Assembly: GCA_964570685.1 (NCBI GenBank)
Contig: CAZMZC010000011.1
Span: 866 to 64,865 of the forward strand
Length of the DNA: 64,000 bases
Direction of reading: 5' to 3'
From: an uncultured Bacteroidaceae bacterium
Lineage (GTDB): Bacteria > Bacteroidota > Bacteroidia > Bacteroidales > Bacteroidaceae
Part shown: positions 1,196-60,188 of the stretch, one piece after another
Layout: every line of letters starts with the position of its first letter
Position numbering within the stretch: the stretch's first letter is position 1
Made by a program: the position numbers and the translations under genes
The notes under the pieces: generated by a model
Seen by the model: only the letters and a program-made list of their open reading frames with translations
The model's database searches: none
What the model was told of the DNA's origin: nothing

Positions 1196-1905
1196 CCACG
1201 CTGTTGTATATACATTGACAATGCACAGCGTGGGCTGTACGCGTACTTCATATATACGAAACAGAATGAGCGTATTCTTATACTCCATCCCTTTTGCTTG
1301 AAATTGGCGATTTCGGATCACGGGATAAAGCAAGAAACGCATTCTTGACCCGAGGATTTCTCCCCTCGGATGGTGCAAAATTAGTGCAAGACGAGAGAAA
1401 AACCAAATATATTTGAGCTTTTCTAAAGTGCCAATTAAAATTAGGTCCAGACTTCATCGTCAGATAAATTTAGTCTAGGCGAGCGGAGTACAACCTTTCG
1501 GCAATCTTAGGCAAGTTGCCGATTGACTACTCTGGCAATAAACAATGGGTTAATGCCGATTTTCGGCAAATAGGCAAGTATGCACCATGTTTTTATGTAC
1601 AACATATGTGTTGAAGGGCTTCTATGTAGAATGCGATGACCTGCGCATAACGGCAAAAAATAACAAAGGAGAGGTTGGTGCGATACGATGAATTTGCAGG
1701 TGCGGCACGGATTTTTCGGGCCTTTCACGTTTCGCGTCACTAGCTAGTGATGCGCTCATCGCTATCTAGCGTTGTATACCTCGCTAGCTAGCACCGTGCT
1801 CGTCGCTATCTAGTATGGATAATAGGCAATTTGCCGAAATCTTCCCTAAAAAACACCGAGCATAGTCAACTTCTGTGAGCAACACTAAAGTTGCCAATTG
1901 TTTGA
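1196..1905. repeat. Long imperfect-palindrome non-coding element, copy A (GGCAA-word arrays plus twin CTAG hairpins)
   Basis: Hairpin ccacgctgt/acagcgtgg (1196..1233) encloses an attgacaatg box. About 11-nt words TTCGGCAATCT, TAGGCAAGTTG and TTTCGGCAAAT lie at 1496..1580. tttcggcaaat (1561..1571) is perfectly inverted at 1829..1839. Twin hairpins lie at 1740..1769 and 1784..1813. Confidence 0.6.
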
Positions 1906-3911: not shown

Positions 3912-4036
3912 ATGTTTTTTTATTTAGAGTTCTTCACGCAACAAATATAGGCTTTTTTAGCGGCATGAGCAATATTCTTGTTAAAAAATCGTCATACAAG
4001 GGCAATGATATGAAATATATGTACTACATTTGCCGA

Positions 4037-5062
4037 ATGTTAAAGTTTCGAAAAATATCTGCCGCCCTACTCATATTGCTCTGCAGCACCGGCATCGTGG
4101 CACAGGAAGGGGAGAAGCCCGACCTCATGTTCAAGGTGTACGACCAGAGTTTCTTCGACAACCGCGAGGTGCGCACTCCCTATCAGCGCTCGCAGACCCT
4201 CTTCGGCTCCATGCTCAGCATCGAAGGCGGCGTGCGGTTTGGCGCACATACCATCATGGCAGGCCTGCACGGCATCAAGGACTTCGGCTGCAGCGGACTG
4301 GCGAAGAGGGACCTCACCTTCTACTACAGCTACGAGGAGGGACACTTCGCGGGTGCCTTCGGCTCGTTCCCGCGCCGGCTGCTGCGTCGCGAGCTGCCCG
4401 ACATCTTCGTGTACGACTCCATCAGATACTATACCCCCACGCTACACGGCGCACTGCTGCAATATACCGCCAGCCACGGCTATGCCGAGGTGTACTGCAA
4501 CTGGCTCAACAAGCAGGGTGTGGGCGAGCGTGAGATATTCGAGATCGTCAGTGACGGACGCTTCGGGCACAAGGGCTACTACGTGGGGTGGAACGCACAG
4601 CTCACCCACTACTCGGTGCCCCGCCCCGCCAACGGGCTTCAGGTATACGACAAGCTGATGCTGAACCCGCACGTGGGCATGGAGAAGAGCGGCCTGGGCT
4701 GGCTGGACGGCTTCGCGCTGGAGGCTGGACTGATGCTCTCGCTCAACCGCGACCGCACCGATATGCTGTGGCACTCACCGATGGGATTCCTGGGCGATGT
4801 GAAACTGCGCAAATGGAGATTCGAGCTACGCGACCGCCTCTATGCCGGCAATCCACAGTTCACCCACTACGACACATACGGCGCACAGCTCCACCGCGGC
4901 GACCCCTACTACCGCAGCAGCCTATACAACCGCACCGACATCTGCTTCTACCTGCTCAACCGCACCTATGTGCAGTGCTATGCAGCCGCCTCGCTCCACT
5001 ACACCGAGGGAGCACTCGACAATTCGCAGCAGGTCGTCCTGCGCATATATCCGAAATGGTAA
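4037..5062 (+). CDS. hypothetical secreted protein, probable outer-membrane beta-barrel
   Basis: ORF 3965..5062. I prefer the ATG at 4037 because MLKFRKISAALLILLCSTGIVAQ is a signal peptide. Aromatic-rich alternating pattern, and it ends ...LRIYPKW. No family recognised. Confidence 0.55.
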   Translation: MLKFRKISAALLILLCSTGIVAQEGEKPDLMFKVYDQSFFDNREVRTPYQRSQTLFGSMLSIEGGVRFGAHTIMAGLHGIKDFGCSGLAKRDLTFYYSYEEGHFAGAFGSFPRRLLRRELPDIFVYDSIRYYTPTLHGALLQYTASHGYAEVYCNWLNKQGVGEREIFEIVSDGRFGHKGYYVGWNAQLTHYSVPRPANGLQVYDKLMLNPHVGMEKSGLGWLDGFALEAGLMLSLNRDRTDMLWHSPMGFLGDVKLRKWRFELRDRLYAGNPQFTHYDTYGAQLHRGDPYYRSSLYNRTDICFYLLNRTYVQCYAAASLHYTEGALDNSQQVVLRIYPKW

Positions 5063-5088
5063 AAGAAGAGAGAGCGCCCCTCGTCAAT

Positions 5089-5151
5089 CGTTAAACGTTC
5101 ATCGTTAATCTTTAATCGTTAAACGTTCATCGTTAAACGTTCATCGTTAAC
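5089..5151. repeat. Heptamer word repeat (CGTTAAA/CGTTCAT/CGTTAAT, 9 units) between convergent genes
   Basis: cgttaaacgttcatcgttaatctttaatcgttaaacgttcatcgttaaacgttcatcgttaac. It contains the stop codon (5147..5149) of the MscS-like gene. Confidence 0.9.
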
Positions 5152-24728: not shown

Positions 24729-25103
24729 AGAGGGAAGCATAAAGAGAGAAAACTGATTTATTTCTCAAAAGCTCACTGACAGGCTTGATGCTATACCCCT
24801 TGGCAAAACAGCCTATACCCCTTGGCAGAAGAAATTCATCCGTAGAACTTCTGCCAAGGGTATACACATTGACAATGTGCTTGTTAGGCATAACGAAAAA
24901 CAAAGCTATTAGCCCATCGCCCCACCCTATAGCAATTTTTCATCTGACCCTTGGCAGAGCAACCTGTTGACAATTGACAATGCACCATTGGAAGGTAACG
25001 TCAACAACTCTGTGCTATACACCAAGAAATTTGATAATGCCGAAGGCTCGTTTTTTCATAAACGAACCACACGTCAGACGAATTAGGCAGTGCCATTTTA
25101 TTT

Positions 25104-25141
25104 GCCGAAGCGCATCAGCAGCGCTGCTGATGCGCTTCGGC
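25104..25141. repeat. Perfect 38-bp palindrome
   Basis: gccgaagcgcatcagcagc|gctgctgatgcgcttcggc, 19-nt arms with no spacer. Followed by the 12-mers cgatgcccatcg and cgatgcgcatcg (25172..25183, itself a perfect palindrome). Confidence 0.95.
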
Positions 25142-25275
25142 AGCGCGGTCGATGCCCATCGGCAGCGCGAACGATGCGCATCGGCAACCTAAAACAACAG
25201 ATAGGATAACGAAAGGCTAAGGCTGTGAAGCAAGAAACAGACAATGCGTTTCTGCCAAGTGAGCAAATAGAGATG

Positions 25276-25460
25276 CTCTCGCTGTGCTTCGCATTATAAA
25301 ACTTTGTTTTAAGATAGCTTGCTCGCTCGGCAGAGCACAAACAAGCTTGGCTCTGCTCTCACTCACTTCGCCATTATGAAACCGCGTTTCAAGATGGCTT
25401 GTTTGCTCGGCAATGATTAAGCGAGCTTATCATTGCTCTCGCTGCGCTGCGCCATTGCCA
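25276..25460. repeat. 80-bp-period tandem repeat (2.3 units)
   Basis: Units start with ctctc at 25276, 25356 and 25436. Units 1 and 2 align over ~58 nt (ctctcgctgtgcttcgcattataaaac... against ctctcactcacttcgccattatgaaac..., both ending ...gctcggca). Confidence 0.8.
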
Positions 25461-25642
25461 GGGGGTAAACGCAAATCATTATATGGCAATATACACTGAC
25501 AATCAACAACAAATATTGCAAAACGAGCGTTTTTTGCCAAGGGGTTCCAAGGTGGCCTTGGCAAGGAGGCTTTAGGTCTCGGCCATAAGGAAACAGTTGC
25601 GCACGCAACTTTTGCGCAAATATTGCGCATCGCGGAGACTCG

Positions 25643-32167: not shown

Positions 32168-32241
32168 GGCTCCTTAGCTCAACTGAATAGAGCATTTGAC
32201 TACGGATCAAAAGGTTATAGGTTTGAATCCTATAGGAGTCA
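32168..32241 (+). tRNA. tRNA-Arg (anticodon ACG)
   Basis: Manual cloverleaf. Acceptor GGCTCCT/AGGAGTC, D arm GCTC-AACTGAATA-GAGC, anticodon arm TTTGA-CTACGGA-TCAAA, variable loop AGGTT, T arm ATAGG-TTTGAAT-CCTAT, discriminator A. No encoded CCA. Confidence 0.88.
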
Positions 32242-32252
32242 CTCAGAAGCAG

Positions 32253-35297: not shown

Positions 35298-35394
35298 TTT
35301 AGAGTTAAAAGTGAAGAGTGAAGAGTTAACCCATAAATGGCGACAAAAGTTCTATCGCCGGGCAAAACTCTTCACTCTTAACCCTAAACTCTAA
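35298..35394. repeat. Word-repeat-based long hairpin (GTGAAGA words)
   Basis: ttagagtt (35299..35306) pairs with aactctaa (35387..35394), and aagagtgaagagtt (35314..35327) pairs with aactcttcactctt (35366..35379). An inner hairpin ggcga...tcgcc lies in the loop. Confidence 0.85.
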
Positions 35395-37224: not shown

Positions 37225-38817
37225 ATGGCTGAAACAAAGTACATCTTCGTCACTGGTGGCGTAGCCTCTTCGCTTGGAAAAGGCGTTATCTCCTCATCAA
37301 TAGGAAAGTTGCTGCAAGCACGCGGCTACAATGTGACAATCCAGAAGTTCGACCCGTATATCAACATCAACCCCGGTACGCTCAACCCCAACGAGCACGG
37401 CGAATGCTATGTGACCGTTGACGGACACGAAGCCGACCTCGACCTCGGCCACTACGAGCGTTTCCTCGGCGTGAATATGACCAAGGCCAACAACATCACT
37501 ACAGGACGTATCTACAAGCGTGTTATCGACCGTGAGCGTCGCGGCGAATACCACGGCAAGACCATCCAGGTAGTACCTCATATCACCGACGAAATCAAGC
37601 GCAACGTGAAGGCGCTCGGCACCAAGTCGCAGTTCGACTTCATCATCACCGAGATTGGCGGTACCGTGGGCGACATCGAGTCACTGCCCTACATGGAGAG
37701 TGTGCGCCAGCTCAAGTTCGAGCTCGGCCGCAATGCCCTCTGCGTGCACCTCACCTACGTACCCTACCTCGCTGCAGCCGGCGAGCTGAAGACCAAGCCT
37801 ACACAGCACTCTGTACAGAAATTGCAGTCGCTCGGTATCCAACCCGACGTATTGGTACTGCGTACCGAGCACGAGCTCCCCGAAGACCTGAAGAAGAAGA
37901 CAGCGCTCTTCTGCAACGTGGATGCCGATGCCGTATTCCAATCCATCGACGCCTCCACCATCTATGAGGTACCCGTATTGTTGCAGAATCAGAGCATGGA
38001 CGACATCATCCTGCGCAAACTCGGCATCACACCTGGTCCAAAACCCGCTCTTGGTCCTTGGAAGGAATTCCTCGACCTCCGCGCCAAGGCTACCGAAGAG
38101 GTACACATCGGTCTCGTAGGCAAGTACGACCTGCAGGATGCCTACAAGTCAATCCTCGAAGCAGCCTCACAAGCCGCTACCTATAACAACCGCAAGCTGA
38201 AGATGCAGTTCTTCAACAGCGAGAACATCACCAACGAGAACGTGGCCAAGACACTCGAAGGCATGGACGGTATCATCATAGGCCCTGGAGCCGGACAGCG
38301 CGGTATCGAGGGCAAGAACATCGTAGCCCGCTATACCCGCGAGAACAACATCCCCACCTTCGGTATCGGTCTCGGCATGCAGTGCATGGTGGTAGAGTTT
38401 GCCCGCAACGTACTCGGCATCGCCGATGCCAACTCACGCGAGATGAACGAAGCTACTCCCAACAACGTTGTTGACATCATGGAGGAGCAGAAGGCTCACC
38501 TCAGCGACACCATGCGTATGGGTAACTTCGACTGCGCACTCATCGAGGGCAGCAAGCTCAAGGAAATCTACGGCGCCAACTGCATCCAGGAGCGTCACCA
38601 CCACCGCTACGAGCTCAACAACAAGTATCAGGAGCAGCTCGAAGCAGCCGGTATGAAGTGCGTGGGCATCAACCCCGACACCAAACTCGTAGAGGCCATT
38701 GAGGTAGCCGAGCATCCTTGGTACATCGGTGTGCAGTACTATCCCCAGTACAACAGCACCGTGCTCAAGCCCCACCCCCTGTTCCTTGCATTCATCAAGG
38801 CAGCCATCGGCAATTGA
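37225..38817 (+). CDS. pyrG: CTP synthase
   Basis: 530 aa. KYIFVTGGVASSLGKG, and the glutamine-amidotransferase cysteine context GIGLGMQCMVVEFARN. Confidence 0.97.
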   Translation: MAETKYIFVTGGVASSLGKGVISSSIGKLLQARGYNVTIQKFDPYININPGTLNPNEHGECYVTVDGHEADLDLGHYERFLGVNMTKANNITTGRIYKRVIDRERRGEYHGKTIQVVPHITDEIKRNVKALGTKSQFDFIITEIGGTVGDIESLPYMESVRQLKFELGRNALCVHLTYVPYLAAAGELKTKPTQHSVQKLQSLGIQPDVLVLRTEHELPEDLKKKTALFCNVDADAVFQSIDASTIYEVPVLLQNQSMDDIILRKLGITPGPKPALGPWKEFLDLRAKATEEVHIGLVGKYDLQDAYKSILEAASQAATYNNRKLKMQFFNSENITNENVAKTLEGMDGIIIGPGAGQRGIEGKNIVARYTRENNIPTFGIGLGMQCMVVEFARNVLGIADANSREMNEATPNNVVDIMEEQKAHLSDTMRMGNFDCALIEGSKLKEIYGANCIQERHHHRYELNNKYQEQLEAAGMKCVGINPDTKLVEAIEVAEHPWYIGVQYYPQYNSTVLKPHPLFLAFIKAAIGN

Positions 38818-38850
38818 TATGTGACAATTCACAATTGACAATTGACAAAT
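38811..38850 (+). repeat. Heptamer CAATTGA word repeat containing the pyrG stop codon
   Basis: caattgatatgtgacaattcacaattgacaattgacaaat. The TGA at 38815..38817 is the stop codon. Confidence 0.9.
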
Positions 38851-38930
38851 AAAAAGAAGTCAAGTAGGCGCAGACGCTGTCTGCGCTTACTATTAGTAAT
38901 AATAAGATAACAGAAAGCAACCAAGAAAGA

Positions 38931-43793: not shown

Positions 43794-44055
43794 TTCTCTT
43801 AAAGTTTTAGTTGATTCGTGCGACAAAGAAAAACATTTCTTTCTCCTCTTCCAACTAAAACTTTAAGAATTTACATACAAGCCCCACTTTTTAACATTTA
43901 TTTTTAGTTGCAAGCGCATAAATGCATGTTTATACCAGTAGTGCGGGCAGAAAGTAAGAGAGCCGTCCCATCGGGAACGGCTCTCTCTTATAGTTTGCAT
44001 AGCCTTTAGCTACAAGATTATGATAACCAGCCTAACGCATATAATTATCAACTAT

Positions 44056-44110
44056 CAATTGTGAATGGTCAATTGTGAATTGTCAATTGTCAATTGTCAA
44101 TTGTCAATTT
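44056..44110 (-). repeat. Heptamer CAATTGA (gene-sense) word repeat containing the M16 peptidase stop codon
   Basis: Plus strand: caattgtgaatggtcaattgtgaattgtcaattgtcaattgtcaattgtcaattt. In gene sense it reads TAA ATTGACAATTGACAATTGACAATTGACAATTCACAATTGA..., the same sense orientation as after pyrG. Confidence 0.9.
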
Positions 44111-46919
44111 ATTCAACACCCACCATCGAAACTTCAATTTCGTTGCCCTGCTTGAGGAGCTTCTGGACAAACTTCTTCAGGTCGTCGGGAGTGATGCTGT
44201 TGAGGGTCTTCTCATAGTCCTTGTAGCCATCGTAGCCGGAGAAGACGTAGTTGTACATGAGGTTGCTCCAGTAGGCGTTCTCCTTCTGGTTCTCGGTGTA
44301 CTTCTTCAGCATATATTCGCGCACCTTGTCGAGGTTCTTCTGCTCGGGACCTTCCTGGGCATACTTGTTGAGCAGATCGATAGCCATTTGGGTGAGGTGC
44401 TCGCGCTTGTCGGGGTCGGTCTGGAACACAATCTGCAACATAGCCTTCTCGCTGGGCACATTGCTGATCTGACCTCTACAGCTTACGCCATAGGTGCCAC
44501 CCTCCTTCTCGCGAATCTCCTCGGTGTACACGATGTCGAGGATCTGTGTGGTGAGGCTCATGAGGAGTTGGCTCTTGAGGTCGGCCTTGGCCTTTCCACT
44601 GTATACTACGAGTACGGTAGCGGCGGGTGTAGCCATCTGCTTCTCGAAGATGTTGGTAATCTCGCCCTTCTGGATATCGAGCTTCACGTCTTTCACCTTC
44701 TCCTTCTTGCCACCTGTGGGCAGACCGCCGATATACTTCTCGATGAGGGGCAGTGCGGTAGCCTCGTCGATGGCACCGGTGAAGATGAATACGAAGTCGC
44801 CTGCATTGGCGAAACGCTCCTTGTAGATCTCGAGGATGCGCTTGTCGTCAATCTTCTCCACATCGGCTGCCTTCATGTTGAGTGCACGAGGATGGTTATT
44901 GTAGAGCACCTTGGTGATGGTGTCGCTCAGTGCCGATGAGGGATCCAGCTCCTGATTCTCGAGCATGGCCTTCATCTTGCTCTTGTAGGATGCAAAGGCT
45001 TCGTCATCGAGGCGGGGAGCAGTGAACTGCAGATAGGTGAGCTGCATCAGAGTCTCAAAGTCCTTCGGGGTACTGTTACCGTTCATACCCTCCGTGTACA
45101 TGCTTACGAAGGGCGATACGCCAGCCTTCTTGCCGGCAAGAGCCTTCTGCAGGTCGGTGCTGTTGAAATTGCCGATACCGTTGTTGCTGATCACGTCAGA
45201 TACCTGTCCGAGGTTGATGCTCTCGCTTGCATCGTACAGTGCCTGACCGCCCTTACTGAAAACACGCATCATAATCTGGTCGGCCTTGAAGTCGGTGCTC
45301 TTGAGGTATACGGTAGCGCCGTTCGAGAGGGTCAGCTGCTTGTAGCCATACTTGGCCTCCTTGGTCTTCACCACCTTGCCGCCAGTAGGCTCCTGGGCGA
45401 TGAGGGGTTCGTCAGACACCTTGTCAACGTATGCGGTGATGTCCTCGGCTGCCACTGAGGTGAGCAGCTGGGCCACTTCTGCCTCGGTGGGATAGGTCAC
45501 GCCCTCCTTTTCGGGGAGCATAGCCATCACTACGAGGTTAGAGTCGCTCATGAGGCCTTGTATAAACTGGTTCACGAGGTCTACGGGGAGGTTGGGAGCG
45601 AACTGGTTCATCAGTGCATACTCGTTCTCGATGCCGGGGATAGGCTCGTTGTCGATGAAGTGGCGCACATACTGCTGGCAGTAGTTGCGGTTCTTCACCT
45701 TGGCACGCTCGTTGTAGGCGCTCTCCAGGTTGGTCAGGTACTCGGCACGTGCACGCACATACTCCGACTCGGTGAAGCCGTGGCGCTGGGCACGCAGCAT
45801 CTCGCGGTAGAGGGTAGCTACGGCCTCCTTCATCTGTCCCTCCTTGGGGATGATGGCACCGCTCACGGCACCCTTGGTCTTGGAGAGGAAGTAGTCCTCA
45901 TCGTTCACGAAGCCCTCTACGAAGGGAGCGTTGGGCTGCATGGCCAGCTCGTTCATACGGCTGCCCATCATCGAGGTAAACATCGCCTTGGCATAGTCGA
46001 TGATAAGGTACTGCATGTTGCCCTTCACCTCGGCGGGGATAGCCTCGTGCTTGTTGAATATATATACGATGCCATACTGCTGCTCCTTGTCCTTGGCCAT
46101 GGCGATGATAGGCTCCTTGTTGTCAGCCACGGGATAGTACACGCGCTCGGCAGGGTTCTCGGGCATGGTGAGGTCGGCAAAGATGCTCTTGATCTTGGCC
46201 TCTATCTCATCTACATTGACATCGCCCACTACGACGATACCCTGTTGGTCGGGGCGGTACCACTTCTCATAGTAGTCGCGCAGAGCCTGGTAGGGGAAGT
46301 TGTCCACCACCTCCATCGTGCCGATAGGCATGCGGTGGCCATAGCGGTTGCCGTCGGGGTACAGTGTGGGGAGCAACTGCTCGAGCATACGCTGCTGAGC
46401 CGTGTTGCGTTGGCGCCACTCCTCATGGATTACGCCACGCTCCTTGTCGATGTCAGCCCCTTCGAGCAGGAGAGCACCAGCCCAGTCGTGCAGAATCCAC
46501 AAGCATGAGTCGATGGCACCAGCCACGCTCATGGGCACATTGTCGATGTTGTACACCGTCTCGTCAATCGAGGTGTAGGCATTGAGGTCGGCACCGAACT
46601 TCACGCCGATGCCTTCGAGGTATTTGATGACCCCATTGCCGGGAAACTTCTCCGTACCGTTGAAGCACATGTGCTCCAGGAAGTGCGCCAATCCGCGTTG
46701 GTTATCCTCCTCCAGCACCGAGCCCACCTTCTGAGCGATGTAGAAGTTGGCCTGTCCTTCGGGATAGTTGTTCTGACGGATGTAGTAGGTCAGTCCGTTG
46801 TCAAGTTTGCCCACGCGAACCTGCGGGTCCACGGGCACAGGCGGCATCTGCTGGGCAAATGCCGTCACGGCACATACCACGAGTGTGACCAATGCCATGA
46901 AATGCTTTCTTAGATTCAT
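44109..46919 (-). CDS. M16-family zinc peptidase (insulinase/pitrilysin-like, two-module)
   Basis: ORF 44109..46997. I prefer the start at 46919 (MNLRKHFMALVTLVVCAVTAFAQ signal peptide). Inverted zinc motif HFLEH (GLAHFLEHMCFNGT). TAATTTTG box on the minus strand at 47044..47051. Confidence 0.9.
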   Translation of the reverse strand: MNLRKHFMALVTLVVCAVTAFAQQMPPVPVDPQVRVGKLDNGLTYYIRQNNYPEGQANFYIAQKVGSVLEEDNQRGLAHFLEHMCFNGTEKFPGNGVIKYLEGIGVKFGADLNAYTSIDETVYNIDNVPMSVAGAIDSCLWILHDWAGALLLEGADIDKERGVIHEEWRQRNTAQQRMLEQLLPTLYPDGNRYGHRMPIGTMEVVDNFPYQALRDYYEKWYRPDQQGIVVVGDVNVDEIEAKIKSIFADLTMPENPAERVYYPVADNKEPIIAMAKDKEQQYGIVYIFNKHEAIPAEVKGNMQYLIIDYAKAMFTSMMGSRMNELAMQPNAPFVEGFVNDEDYFLSKTKGAVSGAIIPKEGQMKEAVATLYREMLRAQRHGFTESEYVRARAEYLTNLESAYNERAKVKNRNYCQQYVRHFIDNEPIPGIENEYALMNQFAPNLPVDLVNQFIQGLMSDSNLVVMAMLPEKEGVTYPTEAEVAQLLTSVAAEDITAYVDKVSDEPLIAQEPTGGKVVKTKEAKYGYKQLTLSNGATVYLKSTDFKADQIMMRVFSKGGQALYDASESINLGQVSDVISNNGIGNFNSTDLQKALAGKKAGVSPFVSMYTEGMNGNSTPKDFETLMQLTYLQFTAPRLDDEAFASYKSKMKAMLENQELDPSSALSDTITKVLYNNHPRALNMKAADVEKIDDKRILEIYKERFANAGDFVFIFTGAIDEATALPLIEKYIGGLPTGGKKEKVKDVKLDIQKGEITNIFEKQMATPAATVLVVYSGKAKADLKSQLLMSLTTQILDIVYTEEIREKEGGTYGVSCRGQISNVPSEKAMLQIVFQTDPDKREHLTQMAIDLLNKYAQEGPEQKNLDKVREYMLKKYTENQKENAYWSNLMYNYVFSGYDGYKDYEKTLNSITPDDLKKFVQKLLKQGNEIEVSMVGVE

Positions 46920-47108
46920 AGTTATATTATAAAATGATAGTTGTTTATCCTCAATCTTTTTATCATTAGACGCAAGCGCCAGCAAAAAACTACACATCTA
47001 ATCTATTTTTTCTCTCCATTGCTTGGCGCAAGCATATTTTTTGCAAAATTAACACATTTGTCCGAAGTCTCGACAACTTTAACATTATTTATACATATGC
47101 CGCCCTAC

Positions 47109-47690
47109 TTTACGCAAAACATACGCAACATTTACGACGGATTTTACGCAACATTTACGGACGTAATCAACAATGTACCAGTGCAATATGGGGTAAATTA
47201 CGCAACATTTGCGCTTTGCCTATTATTTTTGTTCCATCTGCCTTCAGGTTGTTGTCAGAACTCGAGCAGAAGGGCGACGAATCCTTTAGATAGTTCCAAA
47301 CTCTGACGATGTCCTTTGCCTTTTCTAAAAAACTCCTCTGCGATATTTCACAATAGAAAGTTTCAAAAGATACGTCGCTAGCTAGTGATGCGCGGCGCGG
47401 TAGCTAGTGACGCACACCTCGCTAGTTAGCGATGCATGCCGCGGTAACTAGCGCGGCGAAAGATGTTAAGGTCGATAAACGCTGGCCGAACCTGCAATAA
47501 ATCGTGCTGGCATTTCCGAAAAAGATGTAAGTGACGTGTCTTGCCAAGGGGAGGGATTGTACAAGAAAAAACAGTAGAATATGCAATGTTGCGTAATTCA
47601 CCCTTTATCCAACTGATAATCCATAAGTTGCACGCAAAAATAGTGCGTAAAATCCGTCGTAAATCTTGCGTAAATCTTGCGTAAGATTCC
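47109..47690. repeat. Long imperfect-palindrome non-coding element, copy C (TTACGCAA 11-mer arrays plus twin CTAG hairpins)
   Basis: Outer arms 47122..47150 against 47644..47672 (28 of 29). Inner arms aattacgcaacatt 47196..47209 against 47585..47598 (14 of 14), both 74 nt from the outer arms. Arms are made of 11-nt words (TACGCAAAACA TACGCAACATT TACGACGGATT ...). Hairpins at 47378..47407 and 47420..47453. Confidence 0.7.
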
Positions 47691-47700
47691 AAGATAAGGA

Positions 47701-47769
47701 AAAAAGTCCTACCTTCGTGTAACCTTTCGGCTAGTTGTCTTGTCTAATTGGCGGTGACACCAAAGAAAA
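47701..47769 (+). promoter_or_regulatory. 69-bp direct repeat, copy 1: ECF-like promoter/leader before the OM-barrel gene
   Basis: 66 of 69 identical to 50655..50723. Contains GTAACC (47719..47724), a 17-nt spacer, then GTCTAA (47742..47747), followed by an A-rich leader up to the ATG at 47800. Confidence 0.55.
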
Positions 47770-47799
47770 ACGAACAAAACAATTCGGACAACGACAATT

Positions 47800-50643
47800 A
47801 TGAGACACCATAAAACATCCTTAGTGGCTTTACTGCTACTATTCTCTACATTTGCCCACGCCAATGATATGCTCACATTGCGCGGAAAGGTTATTGACAA
47901 TCGCACTCGCAAGGATTTGGTTGGAGCCACCGTACAGATACTTTCCGCCGACAGCACCTTCATTGCCGGTTGTATGGCACAGTGCGACTGGATAGATGGC
48001 AACGAGAAATGGCAGACGGCAGACTTTACACTGAACATCCCTAAGCAAAAGGGAACGTATATCCTACGTGCCGACTTCCTGGGTTATGAGACATCATACA
48101 TCACTCTCTCCCTAAACACGCTGGGGCGTAGGGAATACAATCGCGACCTCCCGCCCATATATATGAAGGAGAAGGCAAAGGAGCTGGGCGAAGTGACCGT
48201 CAGTGCCAGCAAGGTGACGTTCTACTACAAGGGCGACACGGTGGTATACAATGCCGATGCGTTTGTTGTCTCTGAGGGTTCGATGCTCGATGCCATCATA
48301 GCACAAATGCCAGGCGTGGAGCTACGCTCGAATGGCGACATCTACCATAATGGCCGAAAGGTGGAGAACTTACTGCTGAACGGTAAGGAGTTCTTCCGTG
48401 GCGACAATCGGGTGATGCTTGACAACCTACCATCCTACACCGTGAAGCAAATTAAGGTATATGACAAGTTGGGCGACTTGAGCGAATTTCTCGGTCAGGA
48501 GTTGATTGGCGACAAGCAGTATGTAATGGATGTGCAGCTGAAAAAGGAGTACAACGTAGGTTGGATTGCCAACGCCGAGGTGGGAGGCGGAATAGCCGAT
48601 GCCGTATACACGGGCGATAGTCCCTATCTGGTTCGTCTCTTTGCCATGCGCCATAGCGACCGTACACGCTTCACGGCATACGGCAATGTAAACAATCTGA
48701 ACGACAAGCGCAAACCAGGCAGAAACGATGGATGGTCGCCCGATGCAATGATGGGAGGAATACGTAAAGAGGCTACAGGCGGTATCGACTACTATGCTGA
48801 TGACAACGACAAGAAGTGGAAGGTAAACGGCAATATCCAGCTGTCGCACACCAACATCGACGAGCAGGAGACCACAAGCCGTACCAACTTCTTGCCCGGT
48901 GGAGATACCTATGAGCGCATTGTCAAGGCTTCGAAGAACACTGCGCTGCAACTGAGCACCAGCCATGCACTGAACTTGAAGTTCTCTCAGCTCGCATTGA
49001 ACATCAAGCCCTCGGCAAGCTATCAAAGGTATAACAATACGCGCTCAACAACATCACAGACCTTTGCCGACACGCTAATAAACAGCTATATATCCAATGG
49101 CCTTACACGTGGCTACCGACTGAATACCGCATTGTCCGCCGATGGAGTGCTGAAGTTCAAGGGCACCTCTGACTTTATGGAACTTACGGCCAGCGCACGT
49201 TACAGCAATGCGCATGATGAGGAGTTCGACCGATATACATTAAAGGTCGGCAGCGATGACAGGGCTTCACAGTATTCTGACCGCTATTTCAACAACCATC
49301 CCGACCATAACTTCTCTTACAATGCGGGAGTGCATTATATTACCCGAATAAACCAACAGTTGAATTTCACATTAGGATACGATTATGAGCATTCCGACAA
49401 TGTACGTCATTCTTCACTCTACCTGTTGGACAAGTTGTATAATGCGACAGACAGTGCCGCCTTATCTTTGGGCGAACTGCCTTCAATGCGCGAGTATGAA
49501 AGTACCCTCGACCCTCGTAATAGCTATACGAGCCATTTAGTGGGCAACAGCCATATTATCACGCCGATGCTACAATACTTCAAGAAAAACGAGCGAGGCA
49601 AGTGGAACGCTTATGCCCGATTCCCCATAACCCTGTCAGCCCGCAATCTTGCCTACAGTCGAGGCGAGATAGACACGCTCATCCATCATCGCACTACATT
49701 GTTCGGTATTAGCGGCAACTACCTTACTTGGGAGAGTCTGGACAAGAAATATAAGGTGTTTGCCTCATATAATATACATTCCTCACTGCCCGATTTGATA
49801 AATATGGTAGATATGTATGATGACACCGACCCATTGAACATCAAAGTGGGGAATAGTGATTTGAAGAATGCATATACACATACCGTACGAATCGTTGGCT
49901 CGAAACAGCTGCACGAAAAGGGAATGGTACACAGTGCGCAGTTTGACTACAAGTCTACAAGCAACGCATTTGCCGTATCCAATATGTATGACAGGGAAAC
50001 CGGTGTGCGCACCAGCAAGACCTACAATGTCAACGGGAACTGGAGCAGCGATGCAGGCTATGGATTCATGGCTATGCTCGGAAAGAACAAGCGCACCATA
50101 TTCGTCTCTACAACACAAGGAACTTTCAGGCAAAGCGTCGACCTTGTAGGTACTACCGCAATGAACCGATTGGAGCAAAGCACTGTACACACAAAGGCTA
50201 TGCAAGAAAAGCTTTCATTGGAGTACAAACGCGAGATGTACAACATAAAGCTGAAAGCCAATGGTAAGTGGAGCAACGTAAGCAGCAAACGAGACGGCTT
50301 CGCTACGCTCAATATCTTTGACGTAGATTATGGAGTCTCGTCCACTATGATGCTTCCCTATAAGATTGGTCTCACCACGGACTTTACTGTCTACACACGC
50401 CGTGGATACAACGACGAGATGTTCAACACCGACCAATTCGTATGGAACGCCCGCCTGACCAAGAGCATCATGAAAGGCAATCTGGTATTTATGCTCGACG
50501 GCTATGACCTGCTGGGTAGCCTCAGCAACATAACCTACACAATCAATGCACAGGGACGTACCGAAGTCAGACGAAACGTATTGCCACGATACGCCATGCT
50601 ACACGTACAGTATAAATTTAATAAACAACCGAAGAAAAAATAG
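47800..50643 (+). CDS. large outer-membrane beta-barrel protein with N-terminal carboxypeptidase-regulatory-like domain (TonB-dependent-receptor-like)
   Basis: 947 aa with a signal peptide (MRHHKTSLVALLLLFSTFAHA). CarbopepD_reg-like start ...LRGKVIDNRTRKDLVGATVQILS... Long beta-rich body ending ...AMLHVQYKFNKQPKKK. Confidence 0.8.
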   Translation: MRHHKTSLVALLLLFSTFAHANDMLTLRGKVIDNRTRKDLVGATVQILSADSTFIAGCMAQCDWIDGNEKWQTADFTLNIPKQKGTYILRADFLGYETSYITLSLNTLGRREYNRDLPPIYMKEKAKELGEVTVSASKVTFYYKGDTVVYNADAFVVSEGSMLDAIIAQMPGVELRSNGDIYHNGRKVENLLLNGKEFFRGDNRVMLDNLPSYTVKQIKVYDKLGDLSEFLGQELIGDKQYVMDVQLKKEYNVGWIANAEVGGGIADAVYTGDSPYLVRLFAMRHSDRTRFTAYGNVNNLNDKRKPGRNDGWSPDAMMGGIRKEATGGIDYYADDNDKKWKVNGNIQLSHTNIDEQETTSRTNFLPGGDTYERIVKASKNTALQLSTSHALNLKFSQLALNIKPSASYQRYNNTRSTTSQTFADTLINSYISNGLTRGYRLNTALSADGVLKFKGTSDFMELTASARYSNAHDEEFDRYTLKVGSDDRASQYSDRYFNNHPDHNFSYNAGVHYITRINQQLNFTLGYDYEHSDNVRHSSLYLLDKLYNATDSAALSLGELPSMREYESTLDPRNSYTSHLVGNSHIITPMLQYFKKNERGKWNAYARFPITLSARNLAYSRGEIDTLIHHRTTLFGISGNYLTWESLDKKYKVFASYNIHSSLPDLINMVDMYDDTDPLNIKVGNSDLKNAYTHTVRIVGSKQLHEKGMVHSAQFDYKSTSNAFAVSNMYDRETGVRTSKTYNVNGNWSSDAGYGFMAMLGKNKRTIFVSTTQGTFRQSVDLVGTTAMNRLEQSTVHTKAMQEKLSLEYKREMYNIKLKANGKWSNVSSKRDGFATLNIFDVDYGVSSTMMLPYKIGLTTDFTVYTRRGYNDEMFNTDQFVWNARLTKSIMKGNLVFMLDGYDLLGSLSNITYTINAQGRTEVRRNVLPRYAMLHVQYKFNKQPKKK

Positions 50644-50654
50644 CCGATGTGAAG

Positions 50655-50723
50655 AAAAAGTCCTACCTTCGTGTAACCTTTCGGCAAGTTGTCTTGTCTA
50701 ATAGACGGTGACACCAAAGAAAA
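50655..50723 (+). promoter_or_regulatory. 69-bp direct repeat, copy 2: ECF-like promoter/leader before the membrane-protein / sigma / anti-sigma genes
   Basis: GTAACC (50673..50678), a 17-nt spacer, then GTCTAA (50696..50701). Starts 12 nt after the OM-barrel stop. Confidence 0.55.
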
Positions 50724-50761
50724 CAGACAAAATGAACAAACAAACTAAAACAACGAACGAT

Positions 50762-51569: not shown

Positions 51570-52172
51570 ATGACAAAACCGAATGGCCCTAATTTAGAAT
51601 TCAGAATTCAAAATTCAGAATTAAACACCGTGTCTACTCCCGAAGAAATACTCCTGATCTCCCGTGTGCTGCTCCTGAACGATGAGCGGGCATTCGGCCG
51701 TCTGATGAAGCGGTACCTGCGCCCCGTGCGCCACTACTTCCTCATACAGACGGGCGGCGATGAGGCGCTGAGCGACGACCTCACGCAGGAGACCTTCATC
51801 CGGGTGTGGCGCGGGCTCGACACCTACAAGCGGCTCTCGGCATTCGGCACGTGGGTATACCGCATCGCCTTCAACACCCTGCAGAACCACATCGCAGGAG
51901 CCAAGCACCACCTGCGCCTCGACGACGAACACGTGGCCCATACCCTGCAGACGCTGACCACCGAAACGGACTACAATGCCGAAGAGATTGCCGCCCTGCA
52001 CCGCGCCATAGCCCTGCTCAGCGAAGGCGAGAAGACCTGCATCACCCTCTTTTACCTGGAGGAGATGAGCATCAAGGAGATAGCGGCCGTGACCGAGATG
52101 TCGGTCCCTGCTATCAAGACGGCCCTGAGCCGCGGACGAAACCATTTACGAACCCTACTGACCGAAGAATGA
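51570..52172 (+). CDS. ECF-type RNA polymerase sigma-70 family factor
   Basis: 200 aa. Region 2 ...LTQETFIRVWRGLDTYKRLSAFGTWVYRIAFNTLQNH... and region 4 ...LFYLEEMSIKEIAAVTEMSVPAIKTALSRGRNHLR... The start is uncertain: the first 20 codons are a word repeat, and an in-frame GTG at 51630 is an alternative. Confidence 0.85.
   Translation: MTKPNGPNLEFRIQNSELNTVSTPEEILLISRVLLLNDERAFGRLMKRYLRPVRHYFLIQTGGDEALSDDLTQETFIRVWRGLDTYKRLSAFGTWVYRIAFNTLQNHIAGAKHHLRLDDEHVAHTLQTLTTETDYNAEEIAALHRAIALLSEGEKTCITLFYLEEMSIKEIAAVTEMSVPAIKTALSRGRNHLRTLLTEE
51590..51626 (+). repeat. Heptamer CAGAATT word repeat in the annotated 5' end of the sigma ORF
   Basis: taatttagaattcagaattcaaaattcagaattaaac. Shares the 14-mer cagaattcaaaatt with the block inside rlmI (58781..58819). 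Confidence 0.9.
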
Positions 52173-52249
52173 CTATTATAATATAGATGTTTACCTATAT
52201 GCAAAATGTACGATTAACTTAGAAGATTCACGCAAATGTTTTTTTATTT

Positions 52250-52382
52250 CACACAGATCTCACAAATCTCACAGATGGCGCGTCGCTTCGCCCGCGCTTG
52301 TCGGCTTTGCCGAGTGTACACATCCCGGAGGGAAGCACGAGCGATAGCAAGTGCTCTTCGTGAGATTTGTGAGATCTGTGTG
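52250..52382. repeat. Perfect 23-bp inverted repeat flanking an 87-nt GC-rich structured loop, between the sigma and putative anti-sigma genes
   Basis: cacacagatctcacaaatctcac (52250..52272) against gtgagatttgtgagatctgtgtg (52360..52382). The loop holds small hairpins (gcgcg..cgcgc, cggc..gccg, gcac..gtgc). Confidence 0.9.
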
Positions 52383-52483
52383 AGACAAAAAATTCAGCGT
52401 GAAAGAAGCCTTTCAAATCGTACGGTTCGATATAATTTGTATCACCTTACTCTATTAGGAGGAGAATAAAAAAGAAGAAAATT

Positions 52484-53869: not shown

Positions 53870-53909
53870 TGTGTATATTATTTAGTGTTTAGTGTACCAT
53901 CCGGATGGT

Positions 53910-53960
53910 CGTTAATCGTTAACCGTTAATCGTTAATCGATCACCGTTAATCGATCACCG
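53910..53960. repeat. Heptamer CGTTAAT/CGATCAC word repeat containing the lolA-like stop codon
   Basis: cgttaatcgttaaccgttaatcgttaatcgatcaccgttaatcgatcaccg. The stop codon lies at comp(53955..53957). Confidence 0.9.
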
Positions 53961-59874: not shown

Positions 59875-59941
59875 GTGTTTTTCATGGTATTAGATTTTTA
59901 AAGTTGGAAGATTGGTCGTCGGGATGACGACCTTCTTTTTT
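59875..59941 (+). ncRNA. Candidate small RNA, copy 1 (~65 nt, own promoter and intrinsic terminator)
   Basis: gtgtttttcatggtattagatttttaaagttggaagattggtcgtcgggatgacgaccttcttttttt. Terminator ggtcgtc-gggat-gacgacc plus a U-run. 65 nt identical to copy 2. Confidence 0.5.
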
Positions 59942-60085
59942 ATATCCCCCTACTCGGCAAACCCTTCTTTTCGTAATTATTTTTCACTTTCCATCTCAAA
60001 TACCTACGAAAATGTAAATTTTAGTCTAAAACATAAGAGCAAAGCGTTAAAAAGTGTAAGTTCGACACTTTTTTCTTCGAAAAAG

Positions 60086-60120: not shown

Positions 60121-60188
60121 GTGTTTTTCATGGTATTAGATTTTTAAAGTTGGAAGATTGGTCGTCGGGATGACGACCTTCTTTTATT
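60121..60188 (+). ncRNA. Candidate small RNA, copy 2
   Basis: Identical to 59875..59939 over 65 nt, with the same terminator hairpin (60160..60178) and U-run. The two copies start 246 bp apart. Confidence 0.5.

Follow-up and report, generated by a model that had tools for sequence, protein, structure and literature searches.

An inverted-repeat cassette with long multi-word arms beside an outer-membrane beta-barrel gene of an uncultured Bacteroidaceae bacterium, and its homologue at a second, unrelated locus

The question raised by this locus is what a stretch of inverted-repeat DNA of about 600 bp, herein referred to as element C, represents in the genome of an uncultured gut Bacteroidaceae bacterium. 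The whole stretch of DNA analysed in this study (the window) is 64,000 nucleotides in length, and the part under study, positions 47109-47690, was found to be non-coding, with the sequence as described in the initial annotation. It lies inside an 880-bp gap separating two divergent genes, one for an M16 peptidase (44109-46919, minus strand), of which the product starts with a signal peptide, and the other for an outer-membrane beta-barrel (OM-barrel) protein of 947 aa (47800-50643, plus strand), and the whole element extends from about 47101 to 47700. After comparison with assembled contigs of related bacteria, we found that C is one copy of a small, low-copy family of inverted-repeat cassettes, located at no fewer than two unrelated loci. 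Our preferred reading, which we hold tentatively and with a probability of roughly 0.45, is that C is a non-autonomous mobile or recombining cassette, of which the arms would be multi-site platforms for a recombinase or transposase encoded elsewhere.

The first line of evidence is the organization of the arms. Repeat finding detected two inverted pairs, 47110-47156 with 47638-47684 (47 nt, 87% complementary) and 47176-47209 with 47585-47618 (34 nt, 79%). Direct reading confirmed the two anchor pairs reported earlier, 47122-47150 agreeing with the reverse complement of 47644-47672 at 28/29 positions and 47196-47209 with 47585-47598 at 14/14, both anchors being offset by 74 nt. For delimitation of the arms, an arm profile (nhmmer) was built from seven arms of the family, of which two further elements, E2 and E3, are described below. 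The arms had been described as co-linear inverted repeats of about 100 bp; the co-linear inverted arrangement holds, while the length of each arm by the profile is about 140 nt. No further arm beyond the two of C was detected in the 64-kb window by the arm-profile search. When aligned, the arms of C show an average column identity of about 78%, and each is made of one ordered set of 8-bp words, TTACGCAA plus the fixed variant TTACGACG. The arms and their words are as follows.

47101-47247, plus strand: left arm, a long terminal inverted repeat (arm profile, nhmmer E 1e-40)
47547-47692, minus strand: right arm, the inverted counterpart (arm profile, nhmmer E 1.8e-40)
47110-47117, plus strand: left-arm word W1, TTACGCAA
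47121-47128, plus strand: left-arm word W2, ATACGCAA
47132-47139, plus strand: left-arm word W3, TTACGACG
47144-47151, plus strand: left-arm word W4, TTACGCAA
47155-47162, plus strand: left-arm word W5, TTACGGAC
47198-47205, plus strand: left-arm word W6, TTACGCAA, followed by the inner block CCTATTATTTTTG
47684, 47673, 47662 (TTACGACG), 47650 (TTACGCAC) and 47596 (W6), minus strand: starts of the right-arm words
47196-47209, plus strand: inner anchor word W6, AATTACGCAACATT, matching 47585-47598 at 14/14
47585-47598, minus strand: W6', the right-arm counterpart of the inner anchor word, within which the Logan contig L003 terminates (window position 47593)
47685-47700: possible outermost 16 nt of the right end, GATTCCAAGATAAGGA (direct reading; weak)

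The word starts are spaced by 11, 11, 12, 11 and 43 bp in the left arm and by 11, 11, 12 and 54 bp in the right arm, the inner word being located 54 bp beyond W4 in both. The 11-bp period had been equated with one helical turn; the spacing is indeed near-helical, but the mean period is 11.3 bp and the phasing of the words is therefore only approximate. The words turned out to be restricted to the arms. All the exact TTACGCAA sequences in the window (6/6) are inside element arms, 1.76 being expected across 64 kb, and the 16-mer TTACGCAACATTTACG with up to three mismatches occurs six times versus 0.33 expected, again always in the arms (6/6). After inclusion of about 240 kb of related Bacteroidales DNA (about 300 kb together with the window), TTACGCAA was still confined to element arms and was present at no other promoter.

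The second line of evidence is the presence of homologous elements elsewhere. Besides the window, C is carried by contigs L003 and L004. In JGI metagenomes the 20-mer TTTACGACGGATTTTACGCA, common to both arms of C, matched one contig only, L044, in which an arm homologous to those of C (79% over 128 nt) is located just 3' of a cation-efflux (CDF) gene; apart from this arm, no other similarity to the window was found in L044. The element of L044 and L049 is referred to as E3. Contigs L046-L048, of which the CDF protein is 89% identical, hold a near-complete element, E2, made up of two arms (left and right), about 300 nt of interior and four central units of 22 nt, with the arm layout as in C. 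When C is taken in reverse complement, its arms and a 160-nt core can be aligned with E2. The second-locus element was recovered from samples that also contain C, and from a related species. The variant third word, TTACGACG or TTACGAAG (TTACGAC/AG), occupies the same slot in 7/7 arms, and the inner word follows W4 by 54-55 nt in all seven. The W1-W4 word block is 83-100% identical in all arm pairs, in contrast to 42-84% for the segments between the words. The shared word order, the variant W3 and the inner-word spacing indicate that the arms derive from one ordered ancestor, not from independent slippage. A pattern common to the right end of C and the E3 flank, TCCTTA..N8..ATC-TTACGCAA, was also noted by direct reading, and is weak. 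The finding of a homologous element at a second, unrelated locus supports the initial proposal of a discrete element with long multi-word inverted ends, and speaks against C being without other copies or its arm similarity being that of simple sequence.

The right end of E2 is variable among the contigs. Both L046 and L047 end inside the E2 right arm; in these two sister samples the arm continues into W3, while in L048 (SRR14307642) it is abandoned after W4, at 4022-4044, for the unrelated sequence GGCGCACCCGCAAAACCCTGTGT. This departure represents a variant with a truncated arm or, alternatively, a different junction of the repeat. Beside E3, a (GGTGAGC)n array differs by one unit between L044 and L049.

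Between the arms, C contains the features listed below.

47248-47546: non-coding interior, of which only the central part is conserved in E2
47338-47494: conserved interior core, with a homologue at L046 3842-3998, opposite strand (160 nt at 65%, E 8.5e-13)
47338-47356: block CTGCGATATTTCACAATAG in the conserved core (CTGCGAwAwTTC...)
47376-47463: four tandem 22-nt units, with homologous units in E2 and at window 1737-1825
47224-47231, plus strand: TATTTTTG, an inward match to the Bacteroidetes -7 consensus TAnnTTTG, only approximate in the E2/E3 arms (TTATTTTG)
47635-47642, minus strand: TATTTTTG, an inward -7-like box at an arm position different from that of the plus box, not conserved in most arms

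At the start of each 22-nt unit is a 12-bp imperfect palindrome, CGsTA-nn-TAsCG, and adjacent units pair as two strong hairpins (fold z -3.5 and -3.3 on the two strands). As double-stranded DNA, the central palindromes spaced by 22 bp look more like a putative array of dimer-binding sites than RNA hairpins, because almost no loop is left within each palindrome. With respect to the two inward -7 boxes of the initial annotation, both are present, the minus box at 47635-47642 instead of 47636-47643, but they do not form a symmetric or conserved pair. Since the boxes are at background frequency (TAnnTTTG occurs at 0.8 per kb in the window), do not coincide when the arms are aligned and are unconserved in E2/E3, the idea of a locus of convergent transcripts gained no support; no Rfam match was obtained for C, either at gathering thresholds or at E<1. 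A small-protein reading of C was also rejected, as the only open reading frames (ORFs) within the element are TTG- or GTG-started, of 88 aa at most, and of implausible sequence.

For detection of C in other strains and relatives, we compared the flanking genes at both loci. In L004, of which M16 is 98% identical, the whole of C is present in the same orientation at 97% identity, and the substitutions relative to the window cluster between the words, leaving the words intact; the L003 copy is identical to that of the window. The divergence of C between the two strains is 3.1% versus 8.2% at M16 third codon positions. This level, below that of synonymous sites, argues for some constraint or recent exchange. 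Both loci were recovered from the same samples, SRR14307642 yielding L003 (C) and L048 (E2), and SRR16642521 yielding L004 (C) and the CDF contig L050, which stops within the E2 arm; because of this co-occurrence, a single organism probably carries both C and E2.

The presence/absence comparison in relatives suggested at the outset was performed, and the element was missing at both loci in relatives. In L031, of which the OM-barrel protein is 96% identical, the promoter of the extracytoplasmic function (ECF) type and the leader are kept without the element, the similarity starting at about 47711 and another gene being located upstream. C had been placed directly against the leader of the OM-barrel gene; as relatives differ at C and L031 keeps the promoter without it, C is instead outside the control region of the OM-barrel operon, which starts at 47701. 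At the second locus, L045 (CDF 90%) has a gap of only 160 bp from the CDF gene to the gene that follows, and the element is absent. In relatives with M16 of 89-90% identity (L005-L015), cas9 and a tracrRNA-like intergenic region adjoin M16, instead of C and the OM-barrel/ECF operon; synteny is broken at this position, for which there are three or more arrangements. An OM-barrel homologue of 80% identity (L024-L030) is found in a different gene context, with no upstream similarity. Upstream of this homologue, L029 is without a stretch of about 385 bp that L024, L025, L028 and L030 carry between the same flanks, and which reads like part of a small Cys-rich ORF.

Signs of rearrangement were found within the family. 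Between L044 and L049, of which the CDF genes are 99% identical, the arms are identical up to ...GTTGTCCAAGTC and then differ: the 29-mer TACCCTCGAAGAGGGGGAGGTGGTACGAT is in opposite orientations with respect to the CDF gene, and it is exactly at this 29-mer that the two contigs end. Segment by segment, the arms of C show the following identities to the left arms of E2/E3.

Middle arm segment (W4/W5 to W6): left arm of C 45-53%, right arm of C 66-68%
Inner arm segment (after W6): left arm of C 76-79% (C4_L 76-83%), right arm of C 42-48%

The middle segment of the right arm of C and the inner segment of its left arm thus both resemble one E2/E3 arm, and it is at W6, the inner word forming the 14/14 anchor, that the affinity switches. 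Because it separates the arm segments with swapped affinities, W6 is a candidate crossover point. The mosaic arms would fit crossovers within arms, and gene conversion between copies might produce the same pattern. Two of the roles first proposed, a non-autonomous mobile element and a substrate for recombination or inversion, both gain evidence from the presence/absence pattern, the oppositely oriented block and the mosaic arms.

On the preferred reading, C would be unable to move or rearrange alone, and a trans-encoded recombinase or transposase would act on it. The words are the proposed binding sites, loading several enzyme protomers per arm: each arm of about 140 bp would offer four or five words at its tip, spaced about one helical turn apart, and one word 54 bp inward. 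The two inverted arms would then be brought together, with the central four phased 12-bp palindromes possibly serving as a third, enhancer-like site, and strand exchange would then move the cassette to a new site or flip the DNA between the arms. As a lead, such a three-part layout may work like the ends-plus-enhancer synapse of phage Mu or an invertase with an internal enhancer. Protein binding to the words, the class of the enzyme and movement or inversion at present are parts of this scheme that we infer from the organization of the sequence.

The known systems nearest to this scheme are phage Mu (L1-L3/R1-R3 plus the internal activation sequence, IAS), Tn7 with its TnsB sites and IS21 with its multiple terminal repeats, in all of which a repeated word is arranged in fixed order and spacing at inverted ends as in C; for Mu, the internal enhancer provides a third site to which the central array of C could be analogous. 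Unlike these systems, C is without TG...CA tips, a 5-bp target duplication or a transposase gene, and its putative binding words are of 8 bp at an 11-bp period, not sites of about 22 bp.

A number of observations weigh against a mobile or recombining cassette. As to mobility hallmarks, direct reading of the flanks of C, CTACT and GATTC, detected no target-site duplication, the two not being direct repeats (only the 5-nt CCTAC recurs, about 20 nt away, at chance level), and the tips of C are not TG...CA, the ends reading (T)TTACGCAA ... TTGCGTAA(G). No transposase or recombinase was found among the genes of the 64-kb window, and no autonomous parent was detected in plasmid or phage collections by blastn of the whole element, or in viral contigs. 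Copy number is low, two loci being known when tens of copies are usual for a MITE (miniature inverted-repeat transposable element); a search of 185,579 species-representative genomes with the 26-base three-word pattern TACGCAANNNNTACGCAANNTTTACG (20 specified bases) gave no family member, and the JGI metagenome search with the 20-mer gave just the one contig. As to rearrangement, C is in a single orientation in 3/3 assemblies (window, L003 and L004), as is E2 in 3/3, no precise empty site (the same two flanks with the element missing) was found among the relatives compared at either locus, and the difference between L044 and L049 rests on two contig ends and could in part be assembly ambiguity around inverted repeats. 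Finally, E2/E3 is orthologous across genomes of which the CDF genes are 89% identical, indicating that this copy has long been immobile. With regard to enzymes near the second locus, a XerD-like gene is located at a distance of about 2-4 kb from the CDF locus (in L044, about 4 kb separate it from the element), and L045 has this gene too, next to its site without the element.

That C is a phase-variable inverton of a small regulon, in which a remote invertase flips the inter-arm DNA by crossover either at W6 or at the inner edge of the arm and thereby switches the M16 versus the OM-barrel/ECF operons, is conceivable if unlikely. The model is the set of Bacteroides invertible promoters under the global invertase Mpi (fin/IR sites, IR denoting inverted repeat, at polysaccharide loci), which likewise are homologous IR-bounded segments of a few hundred bp at several loci, beside surface or outer-membrane genes, with the recombinase possibly encoded far off. 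The inverted arms of C, directly upstream of the OM-barrel gene in a Bacteroidales genome, and the homologous cassettes at several loci, resembling a global-invertase regulon, agree with this model, as do the 29-mer oppositely oriented inside the element in L044 and L049, the swap of segment affinities either side of W6 with L003 ending inside W6', and the TAnnTTTG box at 47224-47231 just inside W6, the target of which would change on inversion. Against it, the ECF-type promoter of the OM-barrel gene is located outside the arms and is kept in the 96% relative, where the element is absent, only one orientation is seen in all assemblies of C and E2, and E2/E3 is at a gene 3' end. Moreover, no outward promoter was identified inside C, the two TAnnTTTG boxes being located in the arms and directed inward and the candidate internal promoter being unconserved in E2/E3, and the 64 kb holds no recombinase. 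Known Bacteroides inverted repeats are roughly 20-30 bp in length with one core motif, far exceeded by the arms of C with about 140 nt and five or six words. The Mpi motif ARACGTWCGT was considered for its resemblance to ACGGACGT at 47157-47164 and was set aside, this site not being conserved in L004.

We consider it improbable that C is a decaying relic, i.e., an old MITE with long terminal inverted repeats (TIRs) or a scar like that of a cis-mobilizable element (CIME; the joined ends of a deleted integrative element) at a synteny break, the arms of which recombine via general homologous recombination only. Such a relic would agree with the lack of a target-site duplication and of a parent element, with the low copy number, with the location where relatives have cas9 or a third arrangement, and with signs of decay such as the arms being only 78% alike, the ragged outer ends, the degenerate W1 in the E2 left arm and the truncated E2 right arm in L048. 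In contrast, the words and their order are kept in 7/7 arms while the spacers are near random (42-68%), the substitutions between the two strains avoid the words, the element evolves more slowly than synonymous sites, and the four 22-nt units are constant in C, E2 and the element A of the window described below.

Quite improbable, in our estimate, is a static cis-regulatory module, on which a head-to-tail factor of the OmpR/PhoB or SARP type would bind the words and loop the 480 bp separating the arms, with or without two convergent small RNAs (sRNAs) ending at the central hairpins: the strongly conserved words spaced by 11/11/12 bp, the central palindromes 22 bp apart with their strong folding, the intergenic divergence below that of synonymous sites and the two inward TAnnTTTG boxes are in line with it, but the element is found in contexts unrelated to each other, one a divergent promoter region and the other a CDF gene 3' end, is missing in a strain with the same OM-barrel operon and promoter, has words at no other promoter in about 300 kb, and carries boxes that are non-equivalent and unconserved, at 0.8 per kb of background, with no Rfam match at E<1. 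As candidate binders of the words, BlaI/BlaR1, the ECF sigma factor and a LytTR regulator were rejected, there being no link to the words and none of these being common to both loci. Plasmid-type iterons or an R1 parC-like centromere, considered for the numbers involved (two groups of five 11-bp repeats; 22-bp iterons), were dismissed because rep and par genes are lacking, the surrounding DNA is chromosomal and housekeeping (the window genes include those for DnaK, RecA, CTP synthase, YidC and FtsK), and the arms are inverted and not direct.

We class C as a miniature inverted-repeat or invertible element, and as a member of no named family. The closest in general design are BrickBuilt and MITEPgRS of Porphyromonas gingivalis, intergenic Bacteroidales MITEs with a central tandem array of 23- or 41-nt units and a flanking leader and tail (Klein et al. 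2015, PMC4596501). BrickBuilt has 12-bp IS5-type TIRs, GAGACCTTTGCA, matching resident ISPg elements, a repeat number of 1 to 22.8 and 19 copies per genome, and bidirectional promoter activity has been reported (PMC4596501). The likeness to C includes the Bacteroidales host, the strictly intergenic and non-coding nature, the size of about 1 kb or less, the inverted ends, the presence or absence among strains, and a spacer-less central tandem array of about 22-23 nt, four 22-nt units in C, with a few hundred nt on each side. C differs in that its arms of about 140 bp are homologous to each other and carry word arrays, while the leader and tail of BrickBuilt are non-homologous; in that the unit number is four in C, E2 and A but variable in BrickBuilt, the unit sequence being unrelated; and in having two known loci versus 19 copies per genome. 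No sequence similarity exists between BrickBuilt and C, and the search for GAGACCTTTGCA with up to two mismatches gave six matches in the window versus 5.6 expected, none at element C. C is thus outside BrickBuilt, because the defining TIR is absent and because of its long word-array arms, its constant four units and its low copy number.

Within the window, C had been regarded as a copy of one element shared with two other regions, A and B, a view that proved too strong, since A shares only the central units and B only the layout, and neither matches the arm profile. In A (1480-1850, centre 1737-1825), the four 22-nt units have homologues in C and E2, with the consensus CGsTAryTAGyGAkG; the shared centre is therefore retained, the units of C resembling 1735-1814 at 77-78%, but not shared arms, as the A flanks use different words, TTCGGCAA and TTGCCGA, with a short inverted repeat at 1561-1584 / 1816-1839. 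B (24760-25560) is an intergenic region of about 1 kb, containing CCCTTGGCA words of either orientation, two of which are spaced by 22 bp, and with a centre at 25103-25186 of 3.8 x 22 nt including a perfect 20+20-nt palindrome (25103-25142); its unit is unrelated to that of C, and B has no sequence similarity to C despite the same layout. That C/E2/E3, A and perhaps B form a superfamily of modular three-site recombination cassettes, with two multi-word arms and four phased palindromes in a central array, each subfamily with a recombinase specificity of its own, moving as well as flipping and rewiring surface-protein operons, is a speculative extension and rather doubtful.

In search of more distant relatives, generic TTACGCAA arrays were tried as candidates. 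Scanning of species-representative genomes and viral contigs with TACGCAA-N4-TACGCAA-N2-TTTACG gave nothing but isolated tandem arrays of 11-bp units, all in unrelated taxa (Parachlamydiales, Vicinamibacterales, Anaerolineae, Eubacteriales, Alloprevotella and high-GC phage contigs, the arrays in the phages being before TATAAT-type promoters); these were rejected as uninformative because, by a rough estimate, a match at any 9/11 bases is expected this often among period-11 arrays. In viral contigs, the core 16-mer CTAGCTAGTGATGCGC gave chance matches in coding regions only, the pattern GGWTRAWTTACGCAACATT chance matches in low-GC phages only, and TTTWCGAMGGATTTTACGCA zero matches. When TTACGCAA was looked for in the literature as a bacterial site, only primers were retrieved. 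In the high-GC viral contigs, three tandem 11-bp TTTACGCAA units are located between a terminator hairpin and a -10 box of the TATAAT/TATACT type, at the positions below, twice in one phage contig.

L039, 3611-3645: TTTACGCAA array
L040, 7523-7555: TTTACGCAA array
L041, 10882-10915: TTTACGCAA array
L042, 7582-7615: TTTACGCAA array

These arrays could be an activator site in those phages, and no link was found between them and the Bacteroidales element.

Several other repeats and signals were noted in the window. Next to C, a 78-nt ECF-type promoter/leader block (TGTAACC...N16...GTCTAAT) is duplicated at 47701-47778 and 50655-50732 with 91% identity, preceding the OM-barrel gene and a DUF6249 gene, respectively, and an ECF sigma gene follows at 51570-52172. 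On the M16 side, a terminator-like hairpin with a T-run, TGCTTGGCGCAAGCA TATTTTTTGC, is located at 47020-47044 (plus strand), in the interval from the M16 start to element C, with no plus-strand gene upstream of it, and a candidate -7-type box for M16, TAATTTTG, is at 47044-47051 on the minus strand. Word arrays (7, 9 and 14 bp) are common at gene ends, often as long hairpins, at 5081-5150, 53909-53953, 35299-35394, 38806-38855 / 44042-44109 and 52240-52392, the last with 60-nt arms. Inverted (AATTGAC)n arrays, 5.2 kb apart, bracket the YidC-BlaR1-BlaI genes. Two tandem genes for Bacteroidetes sRNAs of the FopS family (Rfam RF04319, above the gathering score) were found at 59875-59944 and 60121-60188, the promoter block upstream of which resembles one before tRNA-Arg at 32168-32242.

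If the arms of C are indeed recombinase platforms, the element would represent a bacterial non-autonomous element with long multi-site ends plus an internal phased array; we know of no description of a multi-site-end architecture, as in the large transposons Mu and Tn7, for miniature Bacteroidales elements. Elements of this kind break short-read assemblies, several contigs in this study ending inside the arms, and their inverted repeats may be mistaken for, or may hide, phase-variable switches. For the Bacteroidales of gut or rumen, C could mark or drive genome rearrangement and surface-protein variation.

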